Source of the DNA: Chiloscyllium plagiosum
Taxonomy: Eukaryota
Assembly: GCF_004010195.1 (NCBI RefSeq)
Contig: NC_057719.1
Span: forward strand, 3,765,145 to 3,812,918
Direction of reading: 5' to 3'
Length of the DNA: 47,774 nucleotides
Position numbers and translations under genes: made by a program. Below, one piece after another: positions 1,320 to 46,670 of the stretch. Numbering within the stretch: the first letter of the stretch is position 1; every line of letters starts with the position of its first letter. Below the pieces are notes generated by a model. The model made no database searches and was not told the DNA's origin. It saw nothing but the letters and a program-made list of their open reading frames with translations.

Positions 1320-3005
1320 AGGAGGATAGGAGAAGTAGGCCATTCAGGCTATCAAGCCTGCTCTGCTATTCAATGAGATCATTGTTGATCTGATAATCGT
1401 CAACTCCACTCTCCTCCCTTTTCCCCATAACCCTTGATTCCTTATTAATTAAAAATCTTTGACAAAGGGTCAGTTAGATTCGAAACGTCAGCTCTTTTCT
1501 CTCCTTACAGATGCTGCCAGACCTGCTGAGATTTTCCAGCATTCTCTCTTTTGGTTTCAGATTCCAGCATCTGCAGTAATTTGCGATTATCTAATTAAAA
1601 ATCTGTCTACCTCAACTTTGAATAGACTTAATGACCCAGCCTCAACAGCCCTCTCTAACAAAGAATTCCACAGAATCACCACCCCAAGAGAAGAATTTCC
1701 TTCTTATCTCGCTTTCTAAAATGTGTGACCACTTATTCTGAGATGATACCCTCTGGTCCTAGACTCTCCCAAAAGGGGAAACAAACTCTCCACATTTACC
1801 CTACAAGTCCCATAAGAATCTTGCGTGTTTCAATAGGTCACCTCTCATTCTTCTAAACTCCAATGAGTACAGACCCAATCTACTCAACCTCTCCTCACAT
1901 TGCAGTCCTTCCACACCTGGTATCCTTCACACCTAGTGAGCCTTCTCTGGATTGCCTCCAGTGCCAGTATACTGCTCTTACCCATTGCTCTGACTTGTGC
2001 TTTGCAAAGCTTTAGCCAAATCTATTTTTATACTCTAATCCTTTTGAAATAAAGGCCAACATTCTGTTTGCTTTCCCCATTATCCATTAAACTTCATGCT
2101 ATCTTTTTGTGATTTATGTATGTGTTTCAGATTTCTGCAATCTTTCTCCATTTAAACAACCAAATCTATTTTTATACTCTAATCCTTTTGAAATAAAGGC
2201 CAACATTCTGTTTGCTTTCCCCATTATCCATTAAACTTCATGCTCGCTTTTTGTGATTTATGTATGTTTCAGATTTCTGCAATCTTTCTCCATTTAAACA
2301 ATATTTAGCTCCTCTATTCTTCTTGCCAAAGTACATATTTGCAATTTTCCGAATTATATATCTTCTGCCATTCAATGATGGTAATCACTGGTAATTACTC
2401 ACTTACCCTGTCTCTATCCCTCTGCAAACCCTTTGCGTCAGCCTCACAGCTTGATTTGCAACCTGTAATATTGTTTATCCGTGAAGTTGGGTACAGTACA
2501 TTCACTTCCCTCATCTAAGTCATTAATATAGATGGTAAATTGCTATGGCCCCAGCACTGATCCCTGGGGCACATCACTCATTCCCACCCTGAAAATGTCC
2601 CCCTTCTCCCCCAACTCTTTATTCTATTCATTAGCCAACCTCCTGTCTATGCTAATGTACTACCTCCAACCCCAGAGGGCTCTTATCCTATTAAGTACCT
2701 TGTGGTACATTATTAAATAATATACATGTGATACCTTATCAAAGTCTTCTAAAATTCCAAATACATTACATTCATTAATTCCCAGTGTTTCTGTCCCTCC
2801 ATTGTCAAATAAAGATGTTACATTGGCAGTTTTCCAATCCTCTGCGACTCTTCCAGAATCTAAGAATTCCTTGAAGATTACTAACAGTGCATCTACTACC
2901 TCTGTAGCAACTTCCTCTAATATTCTAAGATATATCCCACCAGGTCCGGGGACAGATCAGTCTTTAGGCCCATTAGCTATTCTGAGACCTTTTTTCTAGT
3001 CATAG
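1320..3005 (-). mobile_element. Degraded CR1/L2 LINE with a nested pLTR fragment (~1460-1590)
   Basis: Typical CR1 3'UTR and RT remnants, including the ggccccagcactgatccctgggg (PQGSVLGP) motif at ~2548. Confidence 0.7.
2016..2301. repeat. Direct tandem duplication of ~143 bp (2016-2159, 2160-2301)
   Basis: Two adjacent near-identical copies beginning ccaaatctatttttatactct, with a few substitutions and a 2-bp indel. Confidence 0.9.
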
Positions 3006-3615: not shown

Positions 3616-3761
3616 ACACAAATAAAAGAGCAGAACAAATTGAGCATTTTACTCTGCGTCTAACCTCGTGGTATATGTTCTGTGAACATTTGTTGGGAAT
3701 AGTGCAGAGGGAGATTTACTCAATATCAAAAACCACGTGATGGGCAAATATGTCATCAAAG

Positions 3762-4198
3762 ATGAAAAATGTGGTGCTGGAAAAACACAACAGGCCAGGC
3801 AGCATCCGAGGATTAGTAGAATCGACGTTTCGGGCATAAGCCCTTCTTCAGCCTAGGCAGAAGATGAGGCACTCTTCCTCCAGGCGTCATGTGGCCAGGA
3901 TCTGGCGATGGAGGAGGCCAAGGACCTGCATGTCATTGGCGGAGTGGGAGGGGAAGCTAAAGTGTTCAGCTACGGGGGGTTGGGTTGGTTGGTGCGGGTG
4001 TCCCAGAGGTGTTCCCTGAAATGTTTCGCAAGTAGGCGGCCTGTCTCCCCAATGTAGAGGAGGCCACATCGGGTGCAGCGGATACAGTCAATGTTGTGTG
4101 TGGAGGTGCAGGTGAATTTGTGATGGATATAGAAGGATCCATTGGGGCCTTGGAGGGAGGTGAGGGGGGAGGTGTGGGCACAAGGTTTGCACTTCAAG
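3762..4198 (-). mobile_element. Penelope-like element: GIY-YIG endonuclease fragment plus pLTR
   Basis: ORF ...FTCTSTHNIDCIRCTRCGLLYIGETGRLLAKHFREH (YIG motif). Hammerhead core at 3824-3851. Confidence 0.85.
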
Positions 4199-4759
4199 GT
4201 GTCATCAAAACAGCCTGGAAGAGACAGACCCAAAATGGTGAGTCATTGATCGTTGAAGAGATGGAATCATTTTTTGCAAAAGGAAGGGGAAAATGTATTT
4301 TTGAAGCTCACAGCATTGCTCCTAACCATGAGGGATCTCTGAGTTGCACTCTTTTTTCTGTTGTCTGTCTTTGTATCCTCCTTGGGCTGCACAAGCCACA
4401 ATCTTACTAATCACACTCCCCCCAAGGTATTTTCCAATCAGCTTGTTCAGAGATGTCATTACACACCTCCAGAGCAGGTGGGACTATGTACCTTGACCTC
4501 TCAGCCCAGAGACAGGGACACTTCTACTGTACGACAAGTGGCCAACACTCCAATTGCACTATCCCTGACTGAGTTCAGATGCTCATCATGGCCCAGTGAC
4601 TGACACCAAAATATTGCTAGTGCCTATAGTTTATACTGCATGGCAATAACGGGATTTCCTCCCTGACTGAGTTGAGACCTGGGTATGATTCAGGGGAAGG
4701 AGATGGTGGATCACCTTTAACTTTGTAACACACTTTGTACCTGCTCCATTCTCTCTCAC

Positions 4760-5542: not shown

Positions 5543-5876
5543 CTGCAGAAGTAGAATGGAAATAACCAGCTGATTAAGAGACAGGGAAATATTAAGTGCC
5601 CTGAGAATTCTGGCTGTGCAAATATGAGCAAAATAACTCTCTATTCATGTACCATTAAGCTATTTATTTTGAATAATGCTAATCTAATTCGTAGTGTGCT
5701 TAGAGGAACTTTAAACAAATTTGATATTGGTATCTGACCAATGCCAGATCTCTGCAATTTCATCATCATCATTATCAGTCATTTGTCCCAATGAATGGGC
5801 ATAGAGTCATACAGATTAACAGCACAGAAACAGACCCTTCAGTCCAACTGATCCATGCCAAACAGATATCCTAAAT

Positions 5877-13494: not shown

Positions 13495-13885
13495 AAGGCG
13501 GTCCCAAATCGTCCACGTTGGAACGCTCCCTCCAAACACACTGGATCAATCTGGATTTCACCAGTTTCCTCATTTCCCCTCTCCCCACCTTATCCCAGAT
13601 CCAACCTTCCAACTCAGCATCACCCGCTTGACCTGTCCCACCTGTCCATCTTCCTTCCTACCTATCCACTCCACCCTCCTCTCCGACCTATCACCATTAT
13701 CCCCACCTCCATCTATCACACTCTCAGCTACCTTCCCCCCAGCCCCAACCCTCCTCCCATTTATCTCTCAGTCTCCTTCAGCCACCCCCTCATTCCTGAT
13801 GAAGGGCTTATGCTCGAAACATCAACTCTCCTGCTCCTTGGATGCTGCCTGACCGGCTGTGCTTTTCCAGCACCACACTCATTCC
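13495..13885 (+). mobile_element. Penelope-like 3' end/pLTR
   Basis: C-rich tract followed by cctgatgaagggcttatgctcgaaacatc...gctgcctgacc...ttttccagcaccacactc. Confidence 0.8.
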
Positions 13886-22198: not shown

Positions 22199-22875
22199 CG
22201 TTGTGAGTCTGTGGACTCCTTTAATGCAGAGGGCTGTTGAGGTTTAGTTATTAAGTATATTCAAGGCTGAGATCGAGAGATTTTTAACCAGGTAGGGAAC
22301 CAAAGTTATGGGGAAAAGGCAGGAAAGTGGAGTTGAGGGTTATCAGATCAGCCACCATTGTTGAATGATGGAGCAGACTCGATGGGCTGAATGGCCTCCT
22401 TCTGCTCTATGCAAAAGTGAGGACTGCAGATGCTGTACCAGAGTTTAGATCAGAATGCTGGAAAAGCACAGCAGGTCAGGTAGCATCTGAGGAGCAAGAA
22501 AATCGATGCCTGGGGCAAAAGCTCTTCATCAGGAATCCTTTTCCAGCACCACTCTACTTCTGCTCTATGTCTTATTTTGTTTATTTGTTTATTACTTTGT
22601 TACCTTGTTTATTCCCAGTTCCAACCTGAGTATGAGTGATACTAGGTGGCGAGGTTGTCTATCTGACATTGGGCAAGGACACTTCAGGGACACTTCATTC
22701 AGCTTTCGCTGCCATTTGACTAGATCAAGGCTAACCTTCAACATTAACAGCTTCTTCCTATACTAATCCCTTTTGTTTATCTCCTCTTGCAGTGCAAACT
22801 TCATCGACAAGGAAAGCATTTCCAGCCAATCCCAAATTACCCTTGAACTAAGTGGCTTACTGAGATATTTCAGGG

Positions 22876-23024
22876 CTGAAAATGTGTTGCTGAAAAAGCG
22901 CAGCAGGTCAGGAAGCATCCAAGGAGCAGGAGAATCGATGTTTCGGGCATGAGCCCTTGGAAACTGGAGAAATCTGAGTTTATCCCTTGTGGTTGGAGGG
23001 TTCCTAGGTGGAAGATGAGGCGCT
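22876..23024 (-). mobile_element. Short PLE pLTR insertion with 16-bp TSD
   Basis: TSD ctgagatatttcaggg at 22860-22875 and 23025-23040. Confidence 0.8.
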
Positions 23025-23586: not shown

Positions 23587-23888
23587 ATTAGATTAGATTC
23601 CCTACAGTGTGGATAGGTCCTTCGGCCCAACAAGTCCACACCGACCCTCCAAAGAGTAACCCCGCCAGACTCATTTCCCTCTGACTAATGCACCTAATAC
23701 TATGGGCAATTTAGCACGGCCAATTCACCTGATCTGCACATCTTTTAGAATGTGGGAGGAAACTGGAGCACCCAGAGGAAACCCATGCAGACACAGGGAG
23801 AATGTGCAAACTCCACACAGACAGTCACCCAAGGCAGGAATCAAACCCAGGTCCCTGGCGCTGTGAGGCAGCAGTGCTAATCACTGTG
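23587..23888 (-). mobile_element. HE1-like V-SINE nested in a decayed CR1 (~23250-24850)
   Basis: V-domain and AATCT tail. Confidence 0.87.
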
Positions 23889-24927
23889 AAGACTTCTTTT
23901 ATAGAACAAAGAACAAAACAGCACAGGAACAGGCCCTTTGGTCCTCCAGGCCTGTGCCTTTCCAAACTAAAACTGTCTTCACTTTGTTAAGGACCAGGCC
24001 AGGCCCCCTCAAAACATTTCAAGAAAGTAGCCCAGACCCTTACTTTGCTGGTTGTGTTAAGCAGGTGTAGAGTGGATATTCCAGGAGAGAATAGCTGGTC
24101 AACCACTTTGTTTTAAACAAAACAGAATTTATTTCTAAGATTACCAAATGAAACACAAACAAAAGAGAACAGATTAACTTAACCTGTCTGAAAACCCAAC
24201 AGATTTCACCAACTCAATGATACTTTTTCAAACACCTGTATCTGTTAGCTACAATCTAATTGGCCCTAAAACCCTTCAAACTTAGACTTTGATGAGATCA
24301 CTCCTTAAGATTCTAAATTATAGAGAAAACAAGCATAAAGTGCATAATCTTTCCTCATAATGGAAGCCCTGAAATGTAGGCATCATTCTTGTAAATCTAC
24401 GTTGTATTCACTCAAGGCCAATATTATCCTTCCTAAGGTTTGGTGCCCATATCTACTCACAGTACTCCAGTGGGGACGAACCGGGGTTATGTATAATCAC
24501 AGAATAACTTCTGCAGCTTTGCACTCCAGTTCTCTCAATATAAATAGCAGCTTGCCATTTGCTTTCTTGATTATTTTCTGCACCTGATCATGGCATTTTA
24601 AAGATCTATGTACCTGAACCCCAAGTCTCTTTGGACAACCATTGTATTTAACGTCATACCATCTAGAAAGTACTCTGATCTATCCTTTTTCAGTCCAAAA
24701 GAGATAACCTGACTCTTCCTGCCATTGAACTCTACCTCCCACAGTTTTGACCATTCACTTAGTCTATCAATATCCCTTTGTAATTTTATGCTATCATCTA
24801 CACTGTCTACAATGTCACCTAACTTTGGATATATGACTTTCTCTACAATAATTCAAGTTGTTATTAAATAATGACTTCTAGATTATTAGACCAGTGACAT
24901 TACTGCTATGGCACTATCTTCCCAATT

Positions 24928-25249
24928 GGAGCAGCACGGTGGGCTCAGTGGTTAGCACTGCTGCCTCACAGCGCCAGCGACCCAGGTTTGATTTCTGTCT
25001 TGGGCAACTGTCTGTGTGGAGTTTGCACATTCTCCCTGTGTCTGCGGGTTTCCTCCCACAGTCCAAAGATGTGCAGGTTAGGGTGAATTAGCCATGCTAA
25101 ATTACCCATGGTGTTAAGTGCATTAGTCAGGGGTAAATATAGGGAAGGGGAATGGGTCTGGGTGGGTTACTCATCAGAGGGTCGGTGTGGACTTGTTGGG
25201 CCGAAGGGCCTGTTTACACACTGTATTTCCACACTGTATCTAATCTAAT
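24928..25249 (+). mobile_element. HE1-like V-SINE
   Basis: tRNA-like head, V-domain and tail. Confidence 0.87.
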
Positions 25250-27370: not shown

Positions 27371-28245
27371 CTAAAGATATCACAAGCAACAAATAATTCT
27401 ATGAGTGACTATTACATTTGCCTAGATAAATCTTTAGGTTTTGTCAAATAATTCCCTTTGGGTGAGTCCACAATTGTGTGGATTGCACGTGGTCACTGAA
27501 AGGAATGAGTTTGATGAGCCAACTACGTTTTTTTTGTACCATCATAATAAACTTGAAAATGAAAAGCATTCTAACATAGTTACTCTCTATCTGTCAAGTG
27601 CTTCCCAACATCAAACATCAAGAATAGGCAGAGATTCCACCCAAAGAGGTATCAAATATCCCTGACATGAAACACATAGAAATCCCATTCCCCCCACTCC
27701 CGCCCCCATTCCCATGTCAAATATATGGAATATCCTGTTTCTAAATTCCTTTATTACTGAATGCACAGAGTGTTCAGTGTTAGGCAATGATAGCTCATGG
27801 GGTACTATCTACATTTGTGTGCAGATTATAACAGTCTAAGTCTAGGCAATAGCCTAATGCTTTTATTGCTAAACTACCAGTCAAAAGACCCAAGTAATCT
27901 TCTGGTGTCAGGTTCAAATCCTACCATGGCAGATGATATAACTTGAATTCAAAAAAATCTGGAGTTAAGAGTCTAATGAAAACCATGAATTTGTTGTCAG
28001 TTGCTGTTAGAAACCCTTCGATACATTAATGTCCTTTAGGAAAAGAAAGTCCCATCTGTACCTGGTCTGGCCTATATGTATTTACCAACACCTTCCACCC
28101 CAACCTCAAATTCACCTGGACTGTCTCAAACTCCTCCCTCCCCTTCCTAGACCTTTCCATTTCTATCTCGGGCGACCGAATCAACATGGACATTTACTAT
28201 AAACCGACCGACTCCCCCGGCTACCTCGACTACACCTCCTCCCAC

Positions 28246-28988
28246 NNNNNNNNNNNNNNNNNNNNNNNNNNNNNNNNNNNNNNNNNNNNNNNNNNNNNNN
28301 NNNNNNNNNNNNNNNNNNNNNNNNNNNNNNNNNNNNNNNNNNNNNNNNNNNNNNNNNNNNNNNNNNNNNNNNNNNNNNNNNNNNNNNNNNNNNNNNNNNN
28401 NNNNNNNNNNNNNNNNNNNNNNNNNNNNNNNNNNNNNNNNNNNNNNNNNNNNNNNNNNNNNNNNNNNNNNNNNNNNNNNNNNNNNNNNNNNNNNNNNNNN
28501 NNNNNNNNNNNNNNNNNNNNNNNNNNNNNNNNNNNNNNNNNNNNNNNNNNNNNNNNNNNNNNNNNNNNNNNNNNNNNNNNNNNNNNNNNNNNNNNNNNNN
28601 NNNNNNNNNNNNNNNNNNNNNNNNNNNNNNNNNNNNNNNNNNNNNNNNNNNNNNNNNNNNNNNNNNNNNNNNNNNNNNNNNNNNNNNNNNNNNNNNNNNN
28701 NNNNNNNNNNNNNNNNNNNNNNNNNNNNNNNNNNNNNNNNNNNNNNNNNNNNNNNNNNNNNNNNNNNNNNNNNNNNNNNNNNNNNNNNNNNNNNNNNNNN
28801 NNNNNNNNNNNNNNNNNNNNNNNNNNNNNNNNNNNNNNNNNNNNNNNNNNNNNNNNNNNNNNNNNNNNNNNNNNNNNNNNNNNNNNNNNNNNNNNNNNNN
28901 NNNNNNNNNNNNNNNNNNNNNNNNNNNNNNNNNNNNNNNNNNNNNNNNNNNNNNNNNNNNNNNNNNNNNNNNNNNNNNNNNNNNNNNN
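28246..28988. other. Assembly gap (743 N)
   Basis: Run of N. Confidence 1.
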
Positions 28989-29020
28989 TTTTATCTTAGC
29001 CTGCTGGGCACACTTTCCTC

Positions 29021-29056
29021 ATTCCTGAAGAAGGGCTCATGCCCGAAACGTCGATT
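29021..29056 (+). ncRNA. Minimal type I hammerhead motif in a PLE pLTR, intact core
   Basis: attc CTGAAGA a gggc-tcat-gccc GAAA c GTC gatt. Stem I is weak. Confidence 0.6.
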
Positions 29057-29397
29057 CTCCTGCTCCTTGGATGCTGCCTGACCTGCTGCGCTTTTCCAGC
29101 AACACATTTTCAGCTCTGGCCTATATGTATTCCAGACACACAGCAACATGGCTGTCTCTTAATGCCCTCTGAGCAATAAATGCTGGGTAAACCAGCGACA
29201 CCCCACCTCCAGTGAAAGAATTCTTAAAAATGGGATATGGGCCAGGTGCTGGCAGGTGGGACTAGATTGGGTTGGGATATCTGGTCGGCATGGACGGGTT
29301 GAACCGAAGGGTCTGTTTCCATGCTGTACATCTCTATGACTCTATGACTGACCATAGTATGTGAATGGAATGAAACAATGATAGGCTGTTCACATAC

Positions 29398-29506: not shown

Positions 29507-30164
29507 CTGCAAGGAGTTCTGGAAAATGTTTCCTCATATATCGGACATATATATCTTCAGCCTATCAAGAGAGAGACAGCATGACTTTTTACGACATGTT
29601 CAACCAATATTTGTGTTTATCATAGTGAAAGAGTTGGGAACAAGAAACTGGAATCAAACTCAGAAAAGGCATTCAAAAGCCAGGTACTCCAGTGCCCCAT
29701 CAATCAGTACAAGGCAGGTAGAGCAAGGTCGAGGGTTGGGAGTGTGGTGCTGGAAAAGCACAACATGTCAGGCAGCATCTGAGGAGCAGGACAGTCGAAG
29801 TTTCAGGCAAAAGCCTTTCATCATGAAATCTCCAGCATCTGCAGTCCTCACTTTCGCACAGCAAGGTCTAGTACAGAGGAAGGTTCTCCCTTTACATTGA
29901 ACCTAACACTGTCAGGTCAGGAACAACTCGGTTTTAGATACAGAGTAAAGCTTGCTTTGTGATATGTATTTTACATGTTTCAGAGTTATGCAGAGATGAT
30001 ACACAATCTTCTATATTTTATTCAGTGCTTCAACATATCTGCTCTACGTTCCTAGCAGTTGGCTATAGTTTGTTCATATTTCTGTGACCACACAAAGCAT
30101 AATTAATCAAACAAACTCAGAACAATTAAGACCACAATAAAAACTGTTGAGTCAAATGATCCCA

Positions 30165-30372: not shown

Positions 30373-30442
30373 CCAGTTGGTGCACGGAGGGTCAAACTGC
30401 GCCAGTTTGACAGCTCACATTTCCCACAAAAGTCTGAAACTG

Positions 30443-30649
30443 TTTCAGAGGCAATAAATCTTGGATTCTTAAAAACTGAAGAATTTTTCATCTTGAGCTG
30501 CATGAACTTGGACAAAGGACAATGAGCCAACTCTCCAAATAACTATTGATATATCAGAGAGTTGGCTCATTGTCCTTTGTCCAAGTTCACGCAGCCCAAG
30601 ATGAAAAATTCTTCAGTTTTTAAGAATCCAAGATTTATTGCCTCTGAAA
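30443..30649. repeat. Long inverted repeat: 93-bp arms (30443-30535, 30557-30649), 21-nt spacer, 2 mismatches
   Basis: Direct reverse-complement comparison of the arms. Confidence 0.95.
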
Positions 30650-30753
30650 AAGTATCAGGCCAATTCCTAGTTGCGCTATGATACAAAATATCTCTATATA
30701 TACCTAAACAAATCTCTTTGCCATTTTAAACAGCTCAGTTAGATTATCCTTCA

Positions 30754-30901
30754 GGAGAAAGTGAGGTCTGCAGATGCTGGAGATCAGAGCTGAAAATGTG
30801 TTGCTGGAGGTCAGCAGGTCAGGCAGCATCCAGGGAACAGGAGAATCGACGTTTCGGGCATAAGAAGGGCTTATGCCCGAAACGTTGATTCTCCTGTTCC
30901 C
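30754..30901. mobile_element. pLTR-only insertion with head-to-head inversion and 14-bp TSD; a further pLTR follows at ~30925-31020
   Basis: TSD tagattatccttca at 30740-30753 and 30902-30915. Confidence 0.85.
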
Positions 30902-31354
30902 TAGATTATCCTTCAACCTGCTAATATTCCTGATGAAGAGCTTTTGCCCGAAACGTTGATTTCGCTGCTCCTTGGATGCTGCCTGAACTGCTGTGCTCTT
31001 CCAGTACCGTTAATCCAGAATAAGGAAATGCAATGTACAACTTGTCCCAAACTGGACTTTTTAACATCCCAGAATGATCTCATTGCTGGTGAATCAATTT
31101 CTTAGACCTTCGTGAGGGTCCCTGTCAAAAACTGAACACAATACATCAGATGGTGCCTAACCAAGGCTCTGTATCATTGTACCTCTTTAATATCTACCCA
31201 CCTTGAGATAATGATGAACATGATACCTGCAATGTGAAAGGTAAAGGCAAGGTAAAGTCATGATTAGCCTACCATCAGGCTTCTCTCTCATTACAGAAAG
31301 ATGACTGATGGTGGTTTAACCTGAGGGTCACCATGCTTCAGGTGAGGGGAGAGC

Positions 31355-32490
31355 ATTGAGTACAGGAGTTGGGGCATCATTTTGCAACTGTACAGGATAT
31401 TGGGTTAGGGCACTTTTGGAATACTATGTACAATGCTGGTTGCCCTGCTATAGGAAGAATGTTGTTAAACTGGAAAGGGTACATAAAAAGTTTACAAGGA
31501 TATTGCTGAGGCTGGAGGGGTTGAGCTACAGCAAGAGGTTAAATAGGCTGGAGTGTGGGATGACCTCATAGAGGTTTAATAAAATCATGAGAGACATAGG
31601 TAAGGTAAATAGCCAAGGTCTTTTTCCAAGGGTAGGTGAGTCCAAAACTAGAGGGCATGGGTTTAGGGTGATAGGGGAAAGATTTAAAAGGGAACTGAGG
31701 GACAACTTTTTCCACACAGAGGGTTGTGCATGTATGGAATGAGCTGTCAGTTAGTAGAGACTGACACAATTACAACAGTCAAAAACATTTGGACAGGTAT
31801 ATGATAGAAAAGGTTTAGAGGGAATAAAAACTAAAAGAACAGTGGATGCAGGAAATCAGAAACAAAAACAGAAATTGCTAGAAAAGCTCAGCAGGTCTGG
31901 CAGTATCTGCGGAGAGAAATCAGAGTTAACATTTTGGGTCAGGTGACCCTTCCTCAGAACATGTTTAGAGGGATATGGACAAATGCAGGTAAATGGTACT
32001 AAGTCAGTTTAGGATATCTGGCTAGCGTGGATGAGGTAGACCAAAGGATCTGTTTCAGTAATGTATGACTGTGTGGCTAGGTCTTTGAATTCTGGAGTTT
32101 AGAAGACTCAAGGATGACTTAATTGAAACATATGAAATCCTAAGGGGAACTGACTGAGTAGATGTGGAAAGGATGATTCCTCATTGTGGGGCTGGGGTGA
32201 CTCTATAACTAGGGGTCATTGTTTAAAAGTAAGGGATGCCCATTTAAGACAGAGATAAGGGAACATTTTTTTCGTCCAGGGGGTTGAGAATCTTTGAAAT
32301 GCCCTTCCTCAAAAAGCCAGTGAATGTAGAAACTTTGAGTATTTTTATGGCAGAGGTAGATAGATTCTTGACAACAAAGGTGATGAAAGATTATTTTGAA
32401 AACAGAATGTCGAGTTGAGGTTAAAATCAGATCAGCTATGATCTTATTGAATGAAGGAACAGGCTGGAAGGGCTGAGTGGCCTACTCTCA
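31355..32490 (+). mobile_element. Two CR1 3' fragments with a nested pLTR (~31825-31960, -)
   Basis: LEYYVQCW..LERVHKKFTR and CR1 3'UTRs. Confidence 0.8.
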
Positions 32491-34185: not shown

Positions 34186-35931
34186 TGATTTTTTTTTCTG
34201 CAAAGTTGAACTATAAATGATGAGAGCAAGGGTCATAGTTGCCCTGATTGTGAAATCAAACCAATCACAATTGATTTTCTATTCATTCTTGGAATGTGAC
34301 ATCACTGGCTGTGAAGACAGCATATCCCATCAAGCCTTGCAGCCATTGACTCCACCTATACTCCATCATCAAAGACCCTTCCAACCCCGGTTTTACTGTT
34401 TTCCACCATCTTCTGTCAGGTAGAAGACATAAAACTTTGAGTACATATTCTAACAGATTCAAGAACAGCTTCTTCCCCAATGTTATCATACTTTTGAATA
34501 AACCTCTTAAATGTTAAAGTTGATCCGGCCATCTACTCTGTTACTCTGATGCACTTGTATAGAACGATCTGCTTGCAAAGCACAGACGACAATAAATTTC
34601 ACCGTACCACAGTACACATGACAGTAATAAATCAAATCAAATTAAATCATTTGTTACTCTTTCCTACTTGGCCTCGTGAAGGTGGTGTGTTTTACCTCCT
34701 TCTTGAACCACTGCAGCCCATCTGGGATTGGTAAACCCATGGTGCCATTGGGAGGGGATTTTGACCCAACAACATTGAAGGAAGAAATCAACTAGGCAGA
34801 GGTGGATACTGTAGATGCTGGAGATTAGAGTCAAGATTAGAGTGGTGCTGCAAAAACACAGCAGGTCAGGCAGCATCCGAGGAGCAGGAACATTGAAGGA
34901 ACACTATATACTTCTGAGTTAGGACAGAGAGACTCCGTGTGAAAGGGTATTTGCAGATAGATGGGGTCCCCATTTCCCTGTGGCATTTGTTCTTTTAGGT
35001 GGTAGAAGGCATAACTTGTTTTGTATTCGTGCAAGAGCTGTGAGAATTGCTGCTTAGGGTATTTATGGCCCATCTTAATTACCCAGCAGGCAATTAAGGA
35101 TCAACCAAGATGCTGTGGGTCTGGAGTCACATGTAGGTTTGTGCAGGGATGGATGTGCAGATATTTTATGACAATTTATTTTTATTCATTTGTGGATGTG
35201 GACATTGCTGACTGGGCCAGCATTTATTGCCCATCCCTAGTTGCCTTTGAGATGGTGGGGGTGAGCTGCCTTCTTGAATCACTGCAGTCTATATGGTGAA
35301 GGTAAATCCACAATGCCTTTAGGGAGGGAATTACAGGATTATGACCCAGCGACAGTGAAGGAACGGTGATGTATTTCCAAATCAGGATGGTGAATGGCTT
35401 GGAGGGAACTTGCAGGGGGTGGTGTTCCCATGTACCTGCTGCCCTTGTCCTTCTAGGTCATAGTGATCATGGGTTTGCAACATGCTAACTCTGGCTCTTT
35501 GGTGATTTTCTGAGGTGCATCTTGTAGATAATACACACTGCTGCTACTGAGCATCGATGGTGGAGACTTGTGAATGTAATGCCAATCAAGCAGGCTGCTT
35601 TGTCTTGGATGGTGTTGAGAGGGTAGTGCTGGAAAAGCACAGCAGGTCAGGCAGCATCTGAGGAGCAAGAGAATCGATGTTTCAGGCAAAAGCCCTTCAT
35701 CAAGATGGTCCTGGATGATGTCAAGCTTCTTGAGTGTTGGGGCTACACCCATCCAGGCAAGTGCAGAGTATTCCATCACATTCTTGACTTGGTGCCTTGT
35801 AGACAGATTTTGGGGACAGGTAAGTCAACTTTTTAACTCCAGATATTTACTGAAGTTAAATTTCACCATCAGCCCAATTGAAATGCAGCACAAAATATTA
35901 GCTTAAGTTTGCTGTTCCAGTGACATTACCA

Positions 35932-36022
35932 TCCTGAAGAAGGGCTTATGCCCGAAAAGTCGATTCTCCTGTTCCCTGGATGCTGCCTGACCTGCTGCGC
36001 TGTTCCAGCAACACATTTTCAG
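35932..36022 (+). mobile_element. 91-bp pLTR-only insertion starting at the hammerhead, 14-bp TSD
   Basis: TSD cagtgacattacca at 35918-35931 and 36023-36036. The insert starts tcCTGAAGAAGGGCTTATGCCCGAAAAGTC. Confidence 0.85.
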
Positions 36023-36477
36023 CAGTGACATTACCACTATACCAGATCACCACTATCTACCCAATTAATGAAAATTAGAAACACAACAAAAATTGCTGGA
36101 AAAATCAGCAGGTCTGGCACCACCTGTGGAGAGAAAGCTGTGTTAAGAATTCAGATTTAATGATCCTTCTTCAGAACAGGTTAGATGTTTAAGGAGTGTC
36201 AAGTAAACCTACTTGTCCTGCATCATGTTGAGTTTCTTGAGTGTTGTTGAAGTTTTTCTCCCCCAGCAGTGGGCAGAATTCCATCACACTCCCAACTTGC
36301 ACCTTGTGGAATATAGTCACGCTTTGAGGAGTCTGGAGTGATTTGCTCCAGGTAGTGAGGGGCAGAACGGGAACCAACTTTCTGCACTGAAATAAACCTT
36401 CCAAACAAGCACTGCCTAAGCAAACAACCATGGCTTCAATCTGCTCTTCTGCATAACAGCTAGGAAAAGGTTAGCTC

Positions 36478-36787
36478 AGATTAGATTACTTACAGTGTGG
36501 AAACAGGCCCTTTGGCCCAACAAGTCCACACCGCCCCGCCGAAGCGCAACCCACCCATACCCCTACATTTACCCCTTACCTAACACTACGGGCAATTTAT
36601 CATGGCCAATTCACCTGACCTGCACATCTTTGGACTGTGGGAGGAAACCGGAGGACCCGGAGGAAACCCACGCAGACACGGGGAGAACGTGCAAACTCCA
36701 CACAGTCAGTCGCCTGAGGTGGGAATTGAACCCGGGTCTCTGGCGCTGTGAGGCAGCAGTGCTAACCACTGTGCCACTGTGCCGCCC
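36478..36787 (-). mobile_element. HE1-like V-SINE, young
   Basis: Intact CpG-rich copy. Confidence 0.9.
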
Positions 36788-36794
36788 ACAATTT

Positions 36795-36980
36795 TGATAC
36801 AGAGTAATACTAACAGTATAGGTTCAATTCCTGTACTGGCTGAGATTACCATGAAGGACTTTCCTTCTCAACATCTTGTCTCAGCAGAGGTGTGGTGACC
36901 CTTAGGTTAAACCACTATCAATCAGCCCTCTCCCTAATGAAGAGCAGCCCTACGGCTGGGTAGGACTATGGTAACATTCC
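36795..36980 (+). mobile_element. SINE with a Meta-like central domain; reverse copy at ~31240-31352
   Basis: gaggtgtggtgacccttaggttaaaccact...gagcagcc...ggactatgg. Family name from recall. Confidence 0.55.
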
Positions 36981-38389
36981 CTATTTATTAAGGCTCAGAT
37001 TAATCCCTAGTCAATACCCACCATACAGCTATATACATATATATCATTATATTACCCAATTAAATATAAATCATATGCAAGAATAAGACAGAGTGGTAAG
37101 TGTACCTACCTTAGGGCTAGAAGGTCTGGTTTCAAATCTTACCTGACTGGAGGCATGGCATAACATAATTAATCAGGAGACACTTACTTAATGCAGAATT
37201 CCCAGTGCTGATTTGCACTTGTAACCACAGTATTATGTGGTTAGTCCAGTTCAGTTCTTGCTCAGTGGCCCCGAGTGTATTGGTGAGTGACATTACAAAG
37301 CAGTCCTCACCAGTTCTGGAATTTCAGAAAAAGAAAGTTAGCTGTGCAAGGTGATCATACCAGTTATGGTGTTCTGCTTTATCATGCACAAATGTGTGAA
37401 CTCCTGATCACAGCCTCTCAGGAGCCACTACAAGAAAAGAGGGAGCATAAACTTCTGTTTCTATTGGAAACTGAGGCAATCAATTCTTTTGAATAAATGA
37501 TTGACAAATAAATCATCAACACACAAATGAGGTGGTGGAGTAGTGGTACTGTCATTGAGCTAGTCAATCAGAACCCTGAAGCAACATTTTTGGGACATTG
37601 GTTCAAATTGCACCATTAATGTTCTGCTGTTGATGAAATTTGATTTCAGCAAAATTCTGAATCAGAGAGATGAGGTGTTTTTTTTTGTGTAGTTTGCAAT
37701 ACCAACAGGTTACGGAAACCAATTTGAATTTTACTGCTATGAAATTTTGTTAGGCTCCCTGCCATGCTGCGTGATAACATGTAAAAATTCCAAATCAACA
37801 AATACATCTCATTCCCGATGATGATAAGCCATTGCACCAGATCAGTGGATAAAGTTGACATTTCAGATAGCCAACCTCTGTTTCTGTTCCCTCTTTGAAA
37901 AGTAACAGTGTGGTTTCTCCAATAGGTGAAGGTGCACTAGGGAGGATGGACCGTAAGTGCCTACATAGTCATTCTTCACATTCATTCAGCGATCACTGGC
38001 CAACATTTATTGCCCAGAGCTAATTATGTTAATTGAGTCACCTTTGTGACAACTGGAGGCTTATGAGGCTGTTTGAGGGTCGTTAGGGATCAACATATTG
38101 CTGGGGGTCTACAGTCATGTTTCAGACAAACCTGGTTAGGGTGACAGGGTGACCCTGAAGGACATTAGTGAACCTGATGGATTTCCTTTCACAATGATCA
38201 TGTAGCTTTGATCACAGTTCCTGCTGCTTACTTTTTATTCCAGATTTATTTAATTCAATTCTTCAGCTCTGTGGAGCGAGTTGAACTCTTGTTCCATTAG
38301 CCCAGGGATGGGCTACTAAGCTGCAACAGAACCATTAAAAAGAGTTACTTTTTAATCCATTTCAAATTCTCTGCTATTATTTCCATAAA

Positions 38390-41040
38390 AACATATGAAG
38401 CAGAAGTATTAGCAGGCCATTCAGCCCCTTGAGTCTGCTCTGTCATTCAATAGAATTGTGACAATCTGATTGTGGATTTGAAGGAACATTCTCACTTGTC
38501 CCAATTTCAAACCCTTGAGAAACAAAAATCTATCCACCCTGCCTTAAAAATATTCAAAGACTGTGACTCCACTGCCTCTGTAGGAATTTGAAAGACTCAT
38601 GATCCTCTGAGGAAAAATGTTACCATATCTCTGTTTAAATCGACAATCCCGATATAGTGAGTCCTAGTTCTAGATTCTCCTACAAGATGAAACATTATTT
38701 CTACCTCCATCCAGTCAAGTTCTCTCAGGCTCTTGTATGTTTCAAGGAAGTCACCTCCTACTCTTCTAAACTCCAATGGATACAAGCCTAACCCTGTCCA
38801 ACTTATCCTCATAAGACAACCCACCCATTAATCTGTAAAGCATTCCCCAAACTGCCTGCAATGCATTAACATCCCTTGTTAAAGAAGGAGACCAATATTG
38901 TACAGAATGTTCCAGATGTGGTCTCACTGGTGCCCTATGTAATTGAAGCATAACCTCTCTACTTGTGTATTCTATTCCCTCCCAATCAACGATAACCTTA
39001 TATTAGCCTTCTTGATTACTAACCTGCATACTAACCTTTTGTAATTCATGCACAAGAATCTCCCTACATCTCAGAGAACTGCAGTTTGTCACCATTTAGA
39101 TAATATGCTTCTTTTGTCAATCGCCCAACCAAAATGGGCAATTCCATTTATTCCCACAATCTACTCTATTCATTAGATCAATGCTCACTCACTCAACCTG
39201 TCTATATCTTTCTGGAGCCTCCTTCAGCCCACTTCACAACTTACCACTTTTGCTTACTATCTGTCAGATTTGACAATTTTACCTTCCATCCTTTCACCTG
39301 TGTCATTTTTATAAACGCTAGATAGTTGAGATTCCTTCACCAATCCCTGTGGTCCATTATCTTTCCAACCTGAAGAAGTCCCATTTTTTGCCTCCTCTCT
39401 ACTTCTTTAGAGGCAAAAAAAAGCTGCAGATTCTGTAATCCAAGGTAGATAGGCAGGAGGCTGGAAGAACACAGCAAGCCAGCAGCATCAGGAAGTAGAG
39501 AAGTCAAAGTTCAGGTGTAATCCTTCTTCAGGACTGGGGGTGGGGGTGGGGGTCTGCAGATAAAGGGGGTGCTGGGGGCAGGGTGGTGACATGGGGATAG
39601 GTAAAAACAGGTAGAGAGTACGACTTGGTTGGTCAATGGGAGGAGTGAATTGGATTGGTGGCAGGGAGCAGTGGAAGGGAGGGTTTCCAAGTGGCCTCCT
39701 CCATTGTCAAAACAAACCACAGCTCCTATCGGAGGAGCAACGCCTTATCTTCTGCTTAGACACCCCGCAGCCCGGCGGACTCAACATTGAATTCTCCAAT
39801 TTCAAATAACCTCCCTCCCCATCCCCCGACTCCTGTCCCAGTCCCACCAATCAGATTCATTCTTTCCATTAACCAACCAGGTCATACCCTCTACCTGCTG
39901 ATTTGTGATGAAGGGCTTTTGCTTGAAATGTTGATTCTCCTGTTCCTTGGATGCTGCCTGGTCTGCTTTGCTTTTCCAGCACCACCTTCTCAAATCTGTC
40001 TTCACCTATCCCCATTTCTCCACCCAGCCCCCATCTCCCCCTTTATTGCAGCGTCCCCCACATCCACCCCCAGTGCTGAACAAGGGTTACACCTGAAACG
40101 TCAACCTTTCCACCTCCAGATGCTGCCTGACTTGCTGTGTTCTCCCAGCCTCCTGCCTGTCTGCTCTCTGCTTCTTGTCAGCCAGCCACTCCTCTACCCA
40201 TGCCATTATGCTAGATCCTAAAGCATGAGCATTTATTTGATGAAGCACATGATCAAATACCTTCTGGAAATCTAAGTGGCTCAGTGGTTAGCATTGCTGT
40301 CTCACTGCACCAAGAACTCAGGTTCAATCCCACCCTTGGATGGCTATCTGCGTGGTCTTCCTCCAAGTACTCCAGTTTCCTTCTGCAGCCTAAAGATGTG
40401 CTGATTGGAGGGGGAAGCAGAGCAGGTCTGGGTAGGATGCTCTTTGAAGTGCTAGTGTGGACTCAATAGGCTGCATGGAGTGCTTCCACACTATTGGGAT
40501 TCTGTCAACTAAGTATGGAATATTTGCTGGTTCCCCTTCAACCACATTATGTTACCTCCTCAAAGAACTCCATATTGGTCAAAGATTATTTCCCTTTCAC
40601 AACACTACATTAACTCTGCCTGATTACCTTGAATGTATCTAAGTACCCAGCTATAACTTCTTCAACAATAGCTTCTAAAAATTTCCCAATGACGGATAAT
40701 AAACTAGCTGGCATGTAGTTTCCTGCTTGGGATCTTCCTCTCTCTTTGAACAAAGAAATTAAAGTTGCTAAGTTCCAATCTAATTGTTCATTTCTGAAAT
40801 GTAGAGAACTTTGAAAATCTAAAGACATCTCACCAGGCAACTCTTCTCAGGTCCTAGGCTGAAATCCATCATGGCCCAGACAACGGGCAGCTACAGCTCC
40901 AATAACTTACTCAATACCATTTCTCTTGTGATTGTAATTTTCCTTCCTCACTTCCATTTCCTTATCTATTGCTGCTTCTGTGTTCTTATTGGCATCATCT
41001 ATAGTGAAGACCAATGCAAACTACCTGTTCAATGTCTGTT
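38390..41040 (-). mobile_element. Decayed CR1 LINE with nested PLE pLTRs (39408-40163) and a degraded V-SINE (~40277-40503)
   Basis: VRPHLEHSVQYWSP and LFKERGRSQAGNYMPASLLSVIGK. The PLE block has near-TSD ctctct(a/g)cttctt at 39395-39407 and 40164-40176. Confidence 0.8.
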
Positions 41041-41894
41041 CGATAAGCCTAATGCCCTGGGTGTGTACTGTGAACTCCATTTATTTTAGAGAGCACAATT
41101 TGGAAATAGATACTTAAGAATGTAAGAAATAGGAGCAGGAGTCAATAATGTAGCTCTTTGAGCATGCTCCCATTATTCAATACTATAATTATATCGCAAC
41201 TCTACTTTTTCCCTGCTTCCAATATCAAAAGATTCCCTGAGAGATCAATGATCTGTTGATCTCAACCTTGAAAATACACAATGACAGAGTATCTAGAAGA
41301 CAGAATTCCAAAGATTCACAATTTGGGGAAAGAGATGTCCCCTCATGTCCTCTCAGCTCAATCCTGAATGAATGATCCCCTTATTCTGACAAGCCCTTTA
41401 AGAATCATTAATGTATCAAGCAAAATTAGCTCTTACTCTTTCAGGCTCTGAGGTTTGTAGGCCCAAATAATGGAGCCATTGGAGAACACCTTCATCTCAG
41501 GCAATAATCCAATCAGCCTTCACCATTTTGGCTCCGAAGTAAGCATATTCCTGGTGGAGGAGATGCTCTTTAGCTACAATGCCCAATCCAATGAAACTGA
41601 CTTCACAGGAGTTTTGACTGATTGTGTGTGGAGCTGGATTCAAGTAGGGCATTAGTGTTTGTGTAGCCTTGCTCTCAACACACTTGAAGAATTTGACAGA
41701 GACATTGTTTGTGGAATATCTCTTGCTCTCTCATGTGCTGCTGATACACATCTAGGTTTCACAACAGCGCTGTACACAAGGACTGGCTTGTGAATGCACC
41801 TGTCGTCAAACACTATGCTGCCATTCCACACAGTTCCAATGCGCTGTTACAATCTCTATGTAAATAAGATCAGTGTTAGGCCTTGGTTGTATTC

Positions 41895-42032
41895 TAGGAG
41901 AAAGTGAGGACTCCAGATGCTGGAGATCAGAGCTGAAAAATGTGAAGAAGGGCTTATGCCCGAAACATCGATTCTCCTGCTTCTTGGATGCTGCCTGACC
42001 TGCTGCGCTTTTCCAGCAACACATTTTTCAGC
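41895..42032. mobile_element. pLTR-only unit with inversion
   Basis: Minus-strand pLTR end (41895-41944) fused to a plus-strand hammerhead-start pLTR. Confidence 0.75.
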
Positions 42033-42935
42033 TTGGTTGTTTTCTGTAGAATGTTGTGTACCTGCCAAGACACTATTTGGAAACAGATGCTTACATAAGT
42101 CTCACAGCCATAGCTTACAGAAAATTAAGCTAACACAGCTGATTCAGTTCCCATGTATCTGCAACACTAGATGAAAGTGGTTGTGGGTTTGGAAAGTGCC
42201 ATCTAAGAAGCCTTCTTGCATTGTTGAAGTGCATCTAGTAAATGGTACATACTGCTACTACAGTTTTAATGGTGGTCGGACTGAATGCTGAAGATGTTTG
42301 ATGGGGTATTAATATGGCTTTACCTTTAATGATGTTTTTATTCATTCTGGGGATGTGGGTGTTCCTGGCTAGGCCAGGCAATTATTGTCTATCCCTAAAT
42401 GCCTTTGAGATAGTGGTAATGAGCTGCTTTCTTGGACTAATGCAGTTCTAGGCTTTTAGGAACAACTACAGTGCTATTTGGAAAGGAATTCTATGGTTTT
42501 GACCCAGTTACACTGGAGGAATTGAGAGTGTGTTGCTGGAAAAGCACAGCAGGTCAGGCAGCATCCAAGGAGCAGGAGAATCGATGTTTCCCTGCAAAAA
42601 CCCTTCATCAGGGATGGGGGACACTGGAGGAATGGAGATTTCCAAATCCAGGTGGTGAGTGACTTGAAGGGGAACCTGCAGGTGGAGGTGTTCCCATGTA
42701 TCTGCTGCCTTTCATCTTTTAGATGGTAGTTGTTTTGGGTTTGGAAGATGCTGTTGGAGAAGCCTTGGAGAGTTATTGCAGTCAATCTTGTGGATGGTAC
42801 ACATTGTTGCTACTGTGTACTCAGTGGTGGGGGGAGTGAATGTTGCATGCAGTGGATATGGTTCCATTCAAGTGGGCTGCTTAGTCCTGAATGGTGCTGA
42901 GCTTCTTAAAAGTTGCTGGAGCTTCACTTATCTAG

Positions 42936-43075
42936 CACGTTTGCACGATTCCTGAAGAAGGGCTTATGCCCGAAACGTCGATTCTCCTGTTCCCTGGATG
43001 CTGCCTGACCTGCTGCGCTTTTCCAGCAACACATTTTCAGCCCTGAACTCCAGCATCTGCAGACATCACTTTCTC
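42936..43075 (+). mobile_element. 140-bp pLTR-only insertion with intact hammerhead core (42952-42979), 14-bp TSD
   Basis: TSD cttcacttatctag at 42922-42935 and 43076-43089. Confidence 0.88.
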
Positions 43076-43255
43076 CTTCACTTATCTAGTCCTAGTGGAG
43101 AGTATTCCTGGGTCAAAATCCTGTAACACCCTCGCTCACAGAACTCTTAACACAAGCAGCTTAGCCAGCAAGATCCACAACCCCTGAATGAGTAAAATAT
43201 TCTTCTGAAATCCTTCACAGAATGTCTCAATAAGATTTGAGAAGAGAAAGCAAAG

Positions 43256-43537
43256 GATCCCTACAGTGTGGAAACAGGCCCTTCCGTCCAACAAGTCCAC
43301 ACTGACCCTCCAAAGAATAAACCACCATAACCATTCCCCTACATTTACCCCTGACTTATGCACCTAACCTACACATCCCTGAATGCTATGGGCAATTTTA
43401 ATGGCCAATTCACCTAACCTGCACATCTTTGGACTGTGGGAGGAAATTCACACAGACATGAGGAGAACGTGCAAACTCCACACAGACAGTTGCCCGAGGC
43501 TGGAATCGAACCTGGGTCCCTGGCGCTGTGAGGCATC
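43256..43537 (-). mobile_element. HE1-like V-SINE
   Basis: V-domain and tail. Confidence 0.85.
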
Positions 43538-44089
43538 ACCCTACCCCTGAGCCAAAGGCATGACACTCCTTAAAACAGAACCAAGCAGATGTTGAGAAAA
43601 ATCTAGCTTTGAAATACACACCTCACAGTCTCTAGTTTTAATATTGGTCCAAGGCTAACAATCACTGAAACAAAATTACTGACAATGTTTTGCTGACATG
43701 AATTATTAAATGGGTCTCAAAACCAAGCTTGTGCTGTCATCCAAATCAGATTATGTCATAATTCAATCAGGCTGTGTCCCATGAGACGAGTCCACCTCTG
43801 TATATAACACCAACACATGTGCATCATGGGTGTTGTCAAAGTCAGGTTGCAATCAAACAAAGGCACCCTGAGAAACAGCAGACCAGATGAAAGCCTGATG
43901 GGTGATTTTTTTTTCCCAGAGTGCAGCATCAAAGTTGATCCCTCCATTACTGATGGTAATTAAACACACATTATTTGGCACATAGTTCAGTGATCAGATC
44001 CTGACATTGCTGCTGTGGGCAGAAGGGAATTAAATTCTCATAGCCCCCTCAGGGTATTTGTAAGGAAGCTTGCTTATATATGGCCTCCT

Positions 44090-44980: not shown

Positions 44981-45045
44981 GTAGTGTTTTCTACCAACCA
45001 AGTCTGACAGAGTCTCAATGGATGGGAATCAGAAAGCTTCCCAGG

Positions 45046-45341
45046 ACGGGTGGCACAGTGGTTAGCACTGCTACCTCACAGCGCCAAAGACAAGGGTTCA
45101 ATTCCCACCTCAGGCGACTGTGTGGAGTTTGCACATTCTCCCCGTGTCTGCGTGGGTTTACTCCAGTTTCCTCCCACAGTCCAAAAATGTGCAGGTTAGG
45201 TGGATTGGCTATGCTAAATTGCCCCTAGTGTTAGGTGAAGGGGTAAATGTAGGGGAATGGGTCTGGGTGGGTTGCTCTTCGGAGGGTCGGTGTGGACTTG
45301 TTGGGCCGAAGGGCCTGTTTCCACACTGTAGGTAATCTAAT
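45046..45341 (+). mobile_element. HE1-like V-SINE
   Basis: Head, V-domain and tail. Confidence 0.88.
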
Positions 45342-46670
45342 GTTCCCAATGAGATCTGGAGTCAGGCAGAGCTGCCCACTATCTCCTGCCTTGTTTGTGT
45401 GTTGCATAGAACCTTTTGCTGATTCCATCAGGGAAGGTGCGAGCCTGAGAGGGGTGACTATTTCAGGCAGCAGAGGCCTGTGGGTCAAAGCCTCCCTGTA
45501 CGTGGATGATGTCGCGGTTTTCTTCTCAGATCAGCTGTCAGTGCTCGACTCATGAGCATTTGCATCCAGTTTGAACTGGCCTCGGGAACCAAGGTAAATC
45601 AAGGCATGAGCGAGGCCATGTTCTTTGGGAAGCAGGCCGACAGATTCTTTATCCCCTTCACCATTCAGTAGATATTACATGAAGATGCTGGAATATGGTT
45701 TGGAGGAGCCAGGGAGTGTACAAACATTTGGGAGAAGTGTATTGCAAAGGTGGAGCAGAGACTGGGTCTTTGGGAACACGATTTCCCTTCCGTTGCGGGT
45801 AAAGATCTGGTCAACATATGCAAGATACTCTCTCTTAAGTAGCGTAGGTCCAGCCCATTTCCCAAACCTGTGTTGTTACAGTCACCCAAGCTATCTTCCA
45901 CTTCATCTGGAGGTCCCAGATGGGCTGTGTCCACACAGACACCATGTACAAAGGGAGAGAAGAATGTACCCAATGCTGCCCCCACCCTGTTGGTCACCTT
46001 TGAGTGTGGCTGCATCAAGCTGTGCTTCGACCCTAAGTACACAAATACCCAAGTTTCACTATGTACTGAGGTTCCTCTGGCCTCATTGGGCCTGCCTTCA
46101 TTGGGCCGCAGAATGCTCCAAGTAGTTGGTCCATGCCATATCACGTGCCCTTCAGTGGAGAAATTTGCAAAGAAAACCACCTTTGACCACAGGTCCATCA
46201 GAAAGTGGTCAGCACACAGCATCCTTGAGACCCTGCCAGAAAAGGTGGATTCTGTCGGGTTGTTCCCTGAGCAGACAAGCAAAGTCATTTGGCAGAATAT
46301 CTCATCGCCAGTACTTTCCAACAAGCACCAAGACATCGCCTGGCTGACTGTCAGAAAGGCACTACCTGTGAGATTTTTCATGTACACCCACTTGGTCTGT
46401 ACCACCACACGCTGCCCTTGAAGCAGTTGCAGGTGGGTTGAGACAGCCACACAGCTCCTTCTGGAACGTGCCTTTGCAAAGGGAATCTGGAGAGAGATAC
46501 AGTGGTTTTGGCAAGGTTCATCCTGAGCAGCTCTATGACATGGGACTCTGTGGTCTATAGGCTGATCCTGAGGACACACACTGAGACAAACATTGGCTGC
46601 ACTTGGAAAACCATCAAATCAGTGAAAGGTGCTCTTTGGTCTAACCAAAACTTGTTGGTTTTCCAGAACG
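45342..46670 (+). mobile_element. Tx1/L1-clade LINE ORF2 fragment (RT plus C-terminal Cys/His region), frameshifted
   Basis: SGVRQSCPLSPALFVCCIEPF, LYVDDV, HQDIAWL..RKALPVR...CP. Confidence 0.85.

Follow-up and report, generated by a model that had tools for sequence, protein, structure and literature searches.

What are the short pieces of transposon end-repeat scattered through shark DNA, and what determines where they begin? The question is raised by a window of 47,774 nucleotides from Chiloscyllium plagiosum (contig NC_057719.1, positions 3,765,145 to 3,812,918), the whole of which was analyzed. It contains inserts of 90-150 bases made of sequence from the pseudo-long terminal repeat (pLTR) of a Penelope-like element (PLE). 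A preliminary description of this DNA regarded them as a retrozyme-like family with ends possibly set by a hammerhead ribozyme. We show that the inserts are real, separate insertions of pLTR pieces and that they are not retrozymes. They are probably "strong-stop" complementary DNAs (cDNAs), reverse-transcribed from an internal site to the predicted capped 5' end of a PLE transcript and inserted singly, head-to-head or together with pieces of the open reading frame (ORF).

Positions in the pLTR are numbered from the A that precedes the hammerhead core by four bases (+1), which is 29021 in the ORF-linked copy; the predicted hammerhead cut lies between +32 and +33. A search of the window with the pLTR gave 28 matches, from which 15 main-family (A) loci were compiled; matches to sister families B, C and D are excluded from the family-A counts. 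The DNA is animal, and the closest named proteins to its Penelope-like reverse transcriptase (RT) piece come from carpet sharks (Chiloscyllium punctatum at 83%, also Rhincodon and Stegostoma). The segment 28989-29140 was in addition aligned at 80% likeness to four sequencing runs, two of DNA and two of RNA. The DNA runs are public contigs from two shark species and yielded 81,785 and 83,322 matching contig pieces; these totals are not copy numbers, and at about 82,000-83,000 per run they agree with the earlier view of the sequence as very abundant. The two species have old insertions in common, so their 5'-end peaks are not independent. Statements about loose ends, joints and letters between joined parts refer to 18 of 504, 15 of 44 and 12 of 48 rows, respectively, for which the order of ranking is not stated. 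The pLTR pattern had zero matches in metagenome, viral and prokaryote collections, and a search of viral contigs with the ORF profile likewise yielded no relative.

The short inserts as insertions

All six inserts named in the preliminary description are, as it said, bracketed by exact direct repeats of 13-16 bp (Table 1). Repeats of at least 13 bp were found in only 7 of 1474 random brackets of 90-150 bp. The target-site duplications given earlier for ORF-bearing copies were also confirmed, at 17 bp for 28083-29114 and 14 bp for the Poseidon-type copy near 5870-6550. Because the repeats of the inserts have the same lengths, the units can be ascribed to insertion by PLE machinery, as had been suggested. 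For five of 14 inserts tested (42523, 35615, 39898, 1459, 31824), a paralogous empty site exists: when the insert is excised and its flanks are joined, the host repeat is present uninterrupted elsewhere in the window. The joined flanks of the other nine had no spanning match in the window.

The composition of the units is more varied than first described. Five of the six named units lack ORF sequence, whereas 22876-23024 is not pLTR-only, as it joins about 66 bp from the end of the GIY-YIG ORF (tblastn 23025-22936) to the pLTR at +11. The idea that each insert is a single pLTR unit breaks down for 30754-30901, where two pLTR pieces stand head-to-head, joined in stem II. Five more family-A pLTR-only inserts had been overlooked (22412, 29731, 35616, 41896, 39898), four of them flanked by repeats and 39898 without a clear repeat, as had two sister-family pLTR-only inserts (1459 and 31824).

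These structures bear on one alternative, in which recombination between the direct pLTRs of full-length insertions leaves solo pLTRs that retain the repeats and the +1 start. Solo pLTRs have been described and partly ascribed to recombination or deletion (PMC3846280), and such a process predicts the same 5' peak as that found below. It does not account for the four head-to-head units in the window, nor does it explain ORF pieces joined without homology at +5 and +11, and an ORF flanked by two direct pLTRs does not occur in any of the window's family-A copies. Repeats of 90-130 bp are, moreover, poor recombination substrates. We regard recombination as a very improbable source of the inserts.

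Start points of the copies and promoter-like words

Of the 15 family-A loci in the window, two run on into sequence of the 3' untranslated region (UTR) and ORF, and the remaining 13 have their breaks at +1 (three loci), +1/2, +3 (two loci), +5, +6, +11 and +16, between -5 and +1, between -3 and +6, and at +38. Hence 12 of the 15 loci break within -5 to +16, and the starts cluster just upstream of the CTGANGA motif, as previously noticed. Under the most favourable exponential truncation this clustering has a P value of about 6e-7, although the interval was picked after looking at the data, which costs perhaps a factor of 10-20. The edge is the same whatever lies beyond it, be it target DNA, an inverted pLTR (22412, 29731, 30754, 41896) or ORF sequence (3761, 22876). 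Family B and family C inserts likewise begin at their own core or no more than five bases from it.

The public contigs give the same position. Among the matches listed, 29021 (+1) is the largest 5' loose end in both DNA runs, with 564 of 10,994 and 580 of 11,293 partly matching contigs, and the flank agreement of 0.31 indicates that the flanks are unrelated. It is also the largest in the RNA run (223 reads). The next 5' loose ends are at 29030 (454), 29022 (414) and 29020 (412), and eight of the nine inversion joints listed have one side at 29017-29036. The second side of several inversion joints falls at 29053-29058, at the predicted cut or in the 3' arm of stem I, where cleavage and complementarity are indistinguishable. 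An intron ending at +1 was considered and rejected, since no AG precedes +1 and the flank consensus (agreement 0.31) does not represent an exon common to the copies.

Such 5' ends, non-random in the window and in the public contigs, are hard to reconcile with plain random truncation of full elements, the comparison that the preliminary description had proposed. Truncation at the 5' end is the rule for PLEs (PMC8557442; PMC8969392). In addition, match depth rises on from 29036 to 29078, so other starts exist, and one unit starts at +38. The clustering in the window and the single-base peak in two species leave random truncation with next to no likelihood.

The sequence around this edge resembles a core promoter. 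All four ORF-linked copies of families A and D have a single TTTAT in the 3' UTR, at -29 to -32, although the bases between it and +1 differ among them. An initiator-like word with its A at +1 is present in three of the four, judged by the initiator consensus YYANWYY, with the TATA consensus as the other guide. A TTTAT-type word at that distance was found in none of nine short-unit flanks. A G precedes +1 in three of the four window units that start there, compared with C in both family-A ORF-linked copies. In both DNA runs the flank consensus ends in G immediately before 29021, and G is the inserted letter in three of the four listed joints into 29021. Extra G residues at full-length L1 5' junctions have been ascribed to the cap (PMC11702581), and published accounts place a PLE start site inside the pLTR (PMC2377424; PMC8557442). 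A downstream promoter element of the kind found in Drosophila LINEs was also considered; its spacing did not fit and none is claimed.

At the other end, the copies fall into two classes, ending at about +86 to +98 and about +125 to +130. These are about 35 bases apart and correspond to the optional tail of 30-40 bases. In an anole PLE, the tail matches two RT starts inside the RNA, according to the main text of the study (PMC11167929).

These observations can be combined into the following scheme. The ORF-linked pLTR would act as a core promoter, with TTTAT and the initiator-like word directing transcripts to start at +1. The RT/GIY-YIG protein would cut the target with a stagger of 13-17 bases and begin reverse transcription at an internal site of the RNA, about +90 or +128. 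When priming occurred at the site nearest the 5' end, the template would end after 90-130 bases, and the cap would sometimes be copied as a G. Joining of the cDNA end to the other target end would give a single unit, whereas joining to another cDNA, itself primed at the opposite nick, would give a head-to-head unit. A cDNA that jumped to ORF sequence or to another copy would produce the units with ORF pieces and the rare head-to-tail dimers. The ribozyme would be a passenger in setting the main end. Since two cDNAs of sense templates would be joined, head-to-head units would need no antisense template; inverted ends have otherwise been read as self-priming on antisense RNA (PMC3846280).

Several features of this scheme have precedents. 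In retroviruses and other LTR elements, minus-strand strong-stop DNA arises when priming near the 5' end of the RNA yields a short run-off cDNA. Here, in distinction, the primer would be cut target DNA and the product would be inserted, with no tRNA primer, integrase or poly(A) tail. With L1, the scheme has in common that copying to the capped end can leave a G (PMC11702581). The closest biochemical counterpart is the Poseidon element PAc of Anolis, studied in vitro, in which RT starts at two internal sites, both strands are cut and extended, and a hammerhead near the ORF start is dispensable for insertion. PAc belongs to the Poseidon clade, and the main text of that study does not address genomic start points or short run-offs (PMC11167929).

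Relatives in metagenome contigs offer a further comparison. A minimal hammerhead is present in 23 of 80 related loci. In four near-full-length relatives it lies 5' of the ORF or at its start, which makes the pLTR the front of the transcript in those four; the distance to the ATG is about 160 bases in L009 and 205 bases in L016. In L024 (about 240-500), a TATA box and an initiator are followed by an open frame whose ATG lies within the hammerhead core, an arrangement that has been described in the anole PLE too. The TATA box and initiator of L023 and L024 are 32-33 bases apart and predict a start 45-48 bases before the core. Inverted pLTR pieces begin at -45, -46, -59, -61 and -62 from the core in five of seven cases among relatives and at +1 and -222 in the other two. 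As these starts vary relative to the core, the boundary is not tied to the ribozyme across families.

The proposal of run-off copying nevertheless has to be set against several points. The loose end at 29030 is inflated by an A/T variant at 29029 and that at 29020 has a C-rich consensus and derives partly from other parents, so both signals are partly due to subfamily differences. Counts for run X1 are incomplete. In six of the listed inversion joints the opposite side falls at 29053-29055, where cleavage is predicted. In hammerhead stem I the G at -1 has a C as its pairing partner, which makes fold-back templating an alternative source of this letter. Among relatives, a TATA and initiator pair is found in only five of 21 loci and an initiator at -4 in none of 22; L034 has its predicted start at -7, but its inverted piece begins further upstream, at -59, and each related family contributes one junction only. 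A continuation of the shark tail into the ORF was not found, and the pLTR reading frame gave zero matches. Finally, the RNA run shows no place where many molecules begin, and 95% of its 3020 matching reads extend into unlike sequence, with both strands covered.

The weight of this last point depends on the library. The 3020 reads come from about 13 million records of a polyA single-cell run of unspecified tissue, and reads that run on from both strands fit scattered copies inside host transcripts. No pile of ends and no back-joint read is listed, and a library of this kind would lose circles and short RNAs; the second RNA run (X22) had zero matches. The polyA run is a weak test that neither shows nor excludes a gonadal start at +1. 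Also without a match was the pLTR peptide, which is absent from the first 36 relatives and from the N-termini of long relatives.

Hammerhead state and comparison with retrozymes

The hammerheads of the inserts are mostly broken. Several units had been thought to carry one, whereas only 42936 (one of the six named) has a whole minimal hammerhead. The 15.2-16.2 pair is broken in 35932, stem II is missing from 42523, and 30754, 22876 and 34784 lack the CTGANGA core. The hammerheads here have no stem III loop and a weak stem I, and a double hammerhead is not the best structure in a two-copy fold. An Rfam scan of the window did not find the hammerhead family and matched only microRNA models, on an unrelated hairpin. 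No tandem array with a hammerhead per unit occurs in the window, and none of the 13 window junctions falls at +33, the predicted cut. Given the lack of tandem arrays, one whole hammerhead among six units, ORF sequence in one unit and no unit starting at the cut site, the inserts are not retrozymes.

Animal non-LTR retrozymes are also non-coding and related to pLTRs, with a type I hammerhead and flanking repeats longer than 4 bp (13-16 bp here). They are reported from one cartilaginous fish, and solo monomers have been noted. Retrozymes are tandem and mostly 150-450 bp per unit, with a hammerhead in each unit and abundant linear and circular RNA (PMC7229834; 10.64898/2026.07.22.740005). The shark inserts, in contrast, are single units of 90-150 bp whose hammerheads are mostly broken and which do not run from cut to cut. 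Head-to-tail joints are nonetheless present among the contigs, from 29110 to 29024 (four and two contigs) and from 29118 to 29020 (four and one).

Single minimal hammerheads are already known from truncated PLEs (PMC4209133; PMC8969392; PMC6155905). Two reports (PMC4209133; PMC3846280) describe thousands of dispersed single minimal hammerheads without a stem III loop in truncated PLEs, together with inverted pLTRs, an optional tail of 30-40 bases and target-site duplications. In their available portions these copies are read as products of truncation or recombination, and no single-base 5' end, extra G or connection with a start site is mentioned. The open-access literature, with Repbase and Dfam lying outside that search, yielded no account of either an extra G or a single-base start-site edge in PLE copies. 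While single pLTR hammerheads are thus familiar, a sharp start-site footprint in PLE copies is unexpected.

Could RNA structure or processing set the end instead? RT might drop off, or a 5' exonuclease stop, at the base of stem I, or a cleaved RNA might serve as template. The position +1 is the outer edge of stem I, and the G at -1 extends this stem to four of five pairs. The inversion joints beside the predicted cut and the unit starting at +38 also suit such a mechanism. However, stem I is weak, and none of the six named units folds better than shuffled sequence (z -0.83 to +0.42). The 3' arm is what an RT would reach first, but the peak lies 32 bases before the predicted cut, at the distant 5' arm, and no 5' loose end at 29053 is among those listed. 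The inverted pieces of relatives mostly start 45-62 bases before the core, and that of the Poseidon-type element in the window starts 52 bases before it. Ribozyme mutants of the anole PLE insert normally, as stated in the main text of that study (PMC11167929). The earlier suggestion of ribozyme-set ends is thus not supported, and we consider structure or processing an unlikely cause of the main edge.

Parent element, neighbouring features and wider meaning

The PLE pieces in the window match shark proteins that have both RT and GIY-YIG domains. The CX2-5CxxC linker motif is found in P0010 and in 99 of 120 long relatives, and its last CxxC is also present at window position 3852-4197. This linker marks Neptune and Nematis PLEs (PMC8557442). 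The parent may accordingly be labelled a putative Neptune-type element with endonuclease (EN+), a label based on the linker motif and not on an RT tree against named references. Features of the parent-type pLTR that are present include the minimal hammerhead, the optional tail of 30-40 bases and the inverted pLTR. The coordinates of all copies are summarized in Table 1.

Table 1. Copies of the pLTR and other repeats in the window. Short and long end refer to the two 3' end classes.
Feature	Position	Strand	Content	Direct repeats
pLTR-only insert	35932..36022	+	+3 to short end (about +93); young T43/C47 subfamily; hammerhead 15.2-16.2 pair broken	14 bp, 35918-35931 and 36023-36036
pLTR-only insert	42936..43075	+	11 unexplained bases, G, +1 (42948) to long end (about +128); whole minimal hammerhead, core 42952-42979, predicted cut after 42979	14 bp, 42922-42935 and 43076-43089
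Head-to-head pLTR pair	30754..30901	-	+16 to long end on minus; about +10 to +47 on plus; joined in stem II	14 bp, 30740-30753 and 30902-30915
GIY-YIG ORF end and pLTR	22876..23024	-	ORF end (about 66 bp), pLTR +11 to short end	16 bp, 22860-22875 and 23025-23040
pLTR piece	34784..34888	-	+38/39 to long end; no hammerhead; sole start outside cluster	13 bp, 34771-34783 and 34889-34901
Older pLTR-only insert	42523..42620	-	Start -5 to +1, short end, stem II decayed; uninterrupted host repeat at 35216-35486	13 bp, 42510-42522 and 42621-42633
Head-to-head pLTR insert	22412..22556	-	Inverted short pLTR piece, G, +1 (22536) to long end	13 bp, 22399-22411 and 22557-22569
Head-to-head pLTR insert	41896..42031	+	Inverted tail piece (+83 to long end), +6 to short end	14 bp, one mismatch, 41882-41895 and 42032-42045
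Head-to-head pLTR insert	29731..29855	-	Inverted tail piece, +1/+2 to short end	Decayed, 11/13 match
Older insert	35616..35705	-	+3 to short end	Decayed, 16 bp, 13/16 match
Older pLTR piece	30926..31020	+	From +1, T before	None found
Older pLTR piece	39898..39995	+	From near +1, G before; within sister-family PLE 3' UTR	None clear
ORF end and pLTR	3761..4199	-	Linker zinc-finger end and broken GIY-YIG joined directly to pLTR +5	10 bp, exact
ORF-linked young parent copy	28083..29114	+	RT thumb piece, 743-base gap, 3' UTR end, pLTR to short end; TTTAT 28990-28994; initiator-like word, +1 at 29021; hammerhead core from 29025	17 bp
ORF-linked older parent copy	13527..13880	+	ORF end, 3' UTR, pLTR; TTTAT 13760-13764, +1 at 13792	
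Family B pLTR-only insert	1459..1591	+	Starts at hammerhead core	13 bp
Family C pLTR-only insert	31824..31962	-	Starts 5 bases before core	11 bp, exact
SINE-like copies	8103-8399, 8937-9227, 10292-10606, 23584-23888			
SINE-like copies	24924-25225, 36478-36793, 43258-43554, 45042-45341			

Other elements of the window were noted in passing. Nine of the 11 unexplained bases at 42936-42946 match sequence at and after the cut site of the window's Poseidon-type hammerhead, a likeness that may be due to chance, to filler DNA or to a switch between two element RNAs. That separate Poseidon-type PLE (5870-6550) has a different pLTR, its own minimal hammerhead and 14-bp repeats; its inverted pLTR starts within a TATA-like word. 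The minus strand of 1-349 encodes the N-terminal portion of an ORF of Neptune type and includes an inverted junction near 262-311, and at 39460-40162 two PLE 3' ends of sister family D stand head-to-head, one of them with the 39898 insert. The hairpin with spurious microRNA-model matches is an inverted repeat at 30434-30658 that resembles a miniature inverted-repeat transposable element, with arms of 102 bases, 96% complementary, around a 21-base spacer. A separate repeat family resembling short interspersed elements (SINEs), about 300 bp long, has eight copies in the window. On the minus strand, 4756-5640 is a large exon of a cytosolic carboxypeptidase (Peptidase_M14 with its N-terminal domain), which we take to be AGBL2/3-like. 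Long open frames at 45610-46618 had no Pfam match; their plus-strand peptide may represent the end of a Tx1/L1-type ORF2.

In a tree of 15 short rows, the ORF label was not clustered (127 of 500 shuffles were as low) and no branch was strongly supported. Short and ORF-linked copies both occur in old and young groups, and the three copies of one young T43/C47 clade are pLTR-only in the window. The last observation favours a non-autonomous (MRC1-like) family of self-copying solos, in which an internal promoter would drive transcription into the flank and internal priming would restore a unit from +1 to the tail; this is the family of the preliminary description, minus its retrozyme cycle. Penelope of D. 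virilis has an internal promoter (PMC2377424), which makes such copying possible, and non-autonomous PLEs exist in Chlamydomonas (PMC8557442). The three T43/C47 copies group together with 86/86 support, and the C47 variant makes up 8.1% of summed contig depth in organism A compared with 0.6% in organism B. Set against this are the unclustered ORF label, the presence of short copies beside ORF-linked ones in old and young subfamilies alike, the three different structures of the three T43/C47 copies and the loss of the conserved -30 motif from nine of nine short units. Self-copying solos are, in our judgment, an improbable explanation, if somewhat less so than structural stops. Having lost the -30 element, short copies are probably mostly dead on arrival.

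A broader interpretation of run-off copying is advanced tentatively and as a whole. PLEs may make retrovirus-like strong-stop cDNA in vivo, of which shark genomes would keep tens of thousands of copies that mark the start site and cap to the base. Two cDNAs from both nicks may at the same time build inverted pLTRs, and the rare head-to-tail dimers, with two minimal hammerheads, may be retrozymes at birth.

On how PLEs build their pseudo-LTRs, tails and inverted ends, the one in vitro study shows the internal priming and not the events at the other end. If the inserts are run-off cDNAs, the shark genome holds a very large natural record of start site, cap copying, priming sites and cDNA joining. 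The same interpretation would provide a sense-template account of head-to-head inversions and show concretely how a pLTR could give rise to a retrozyme. In annotation terms, it would mean that many short hammerhead repeats of sharks are likely by-products of PLE copying and not a separate family.

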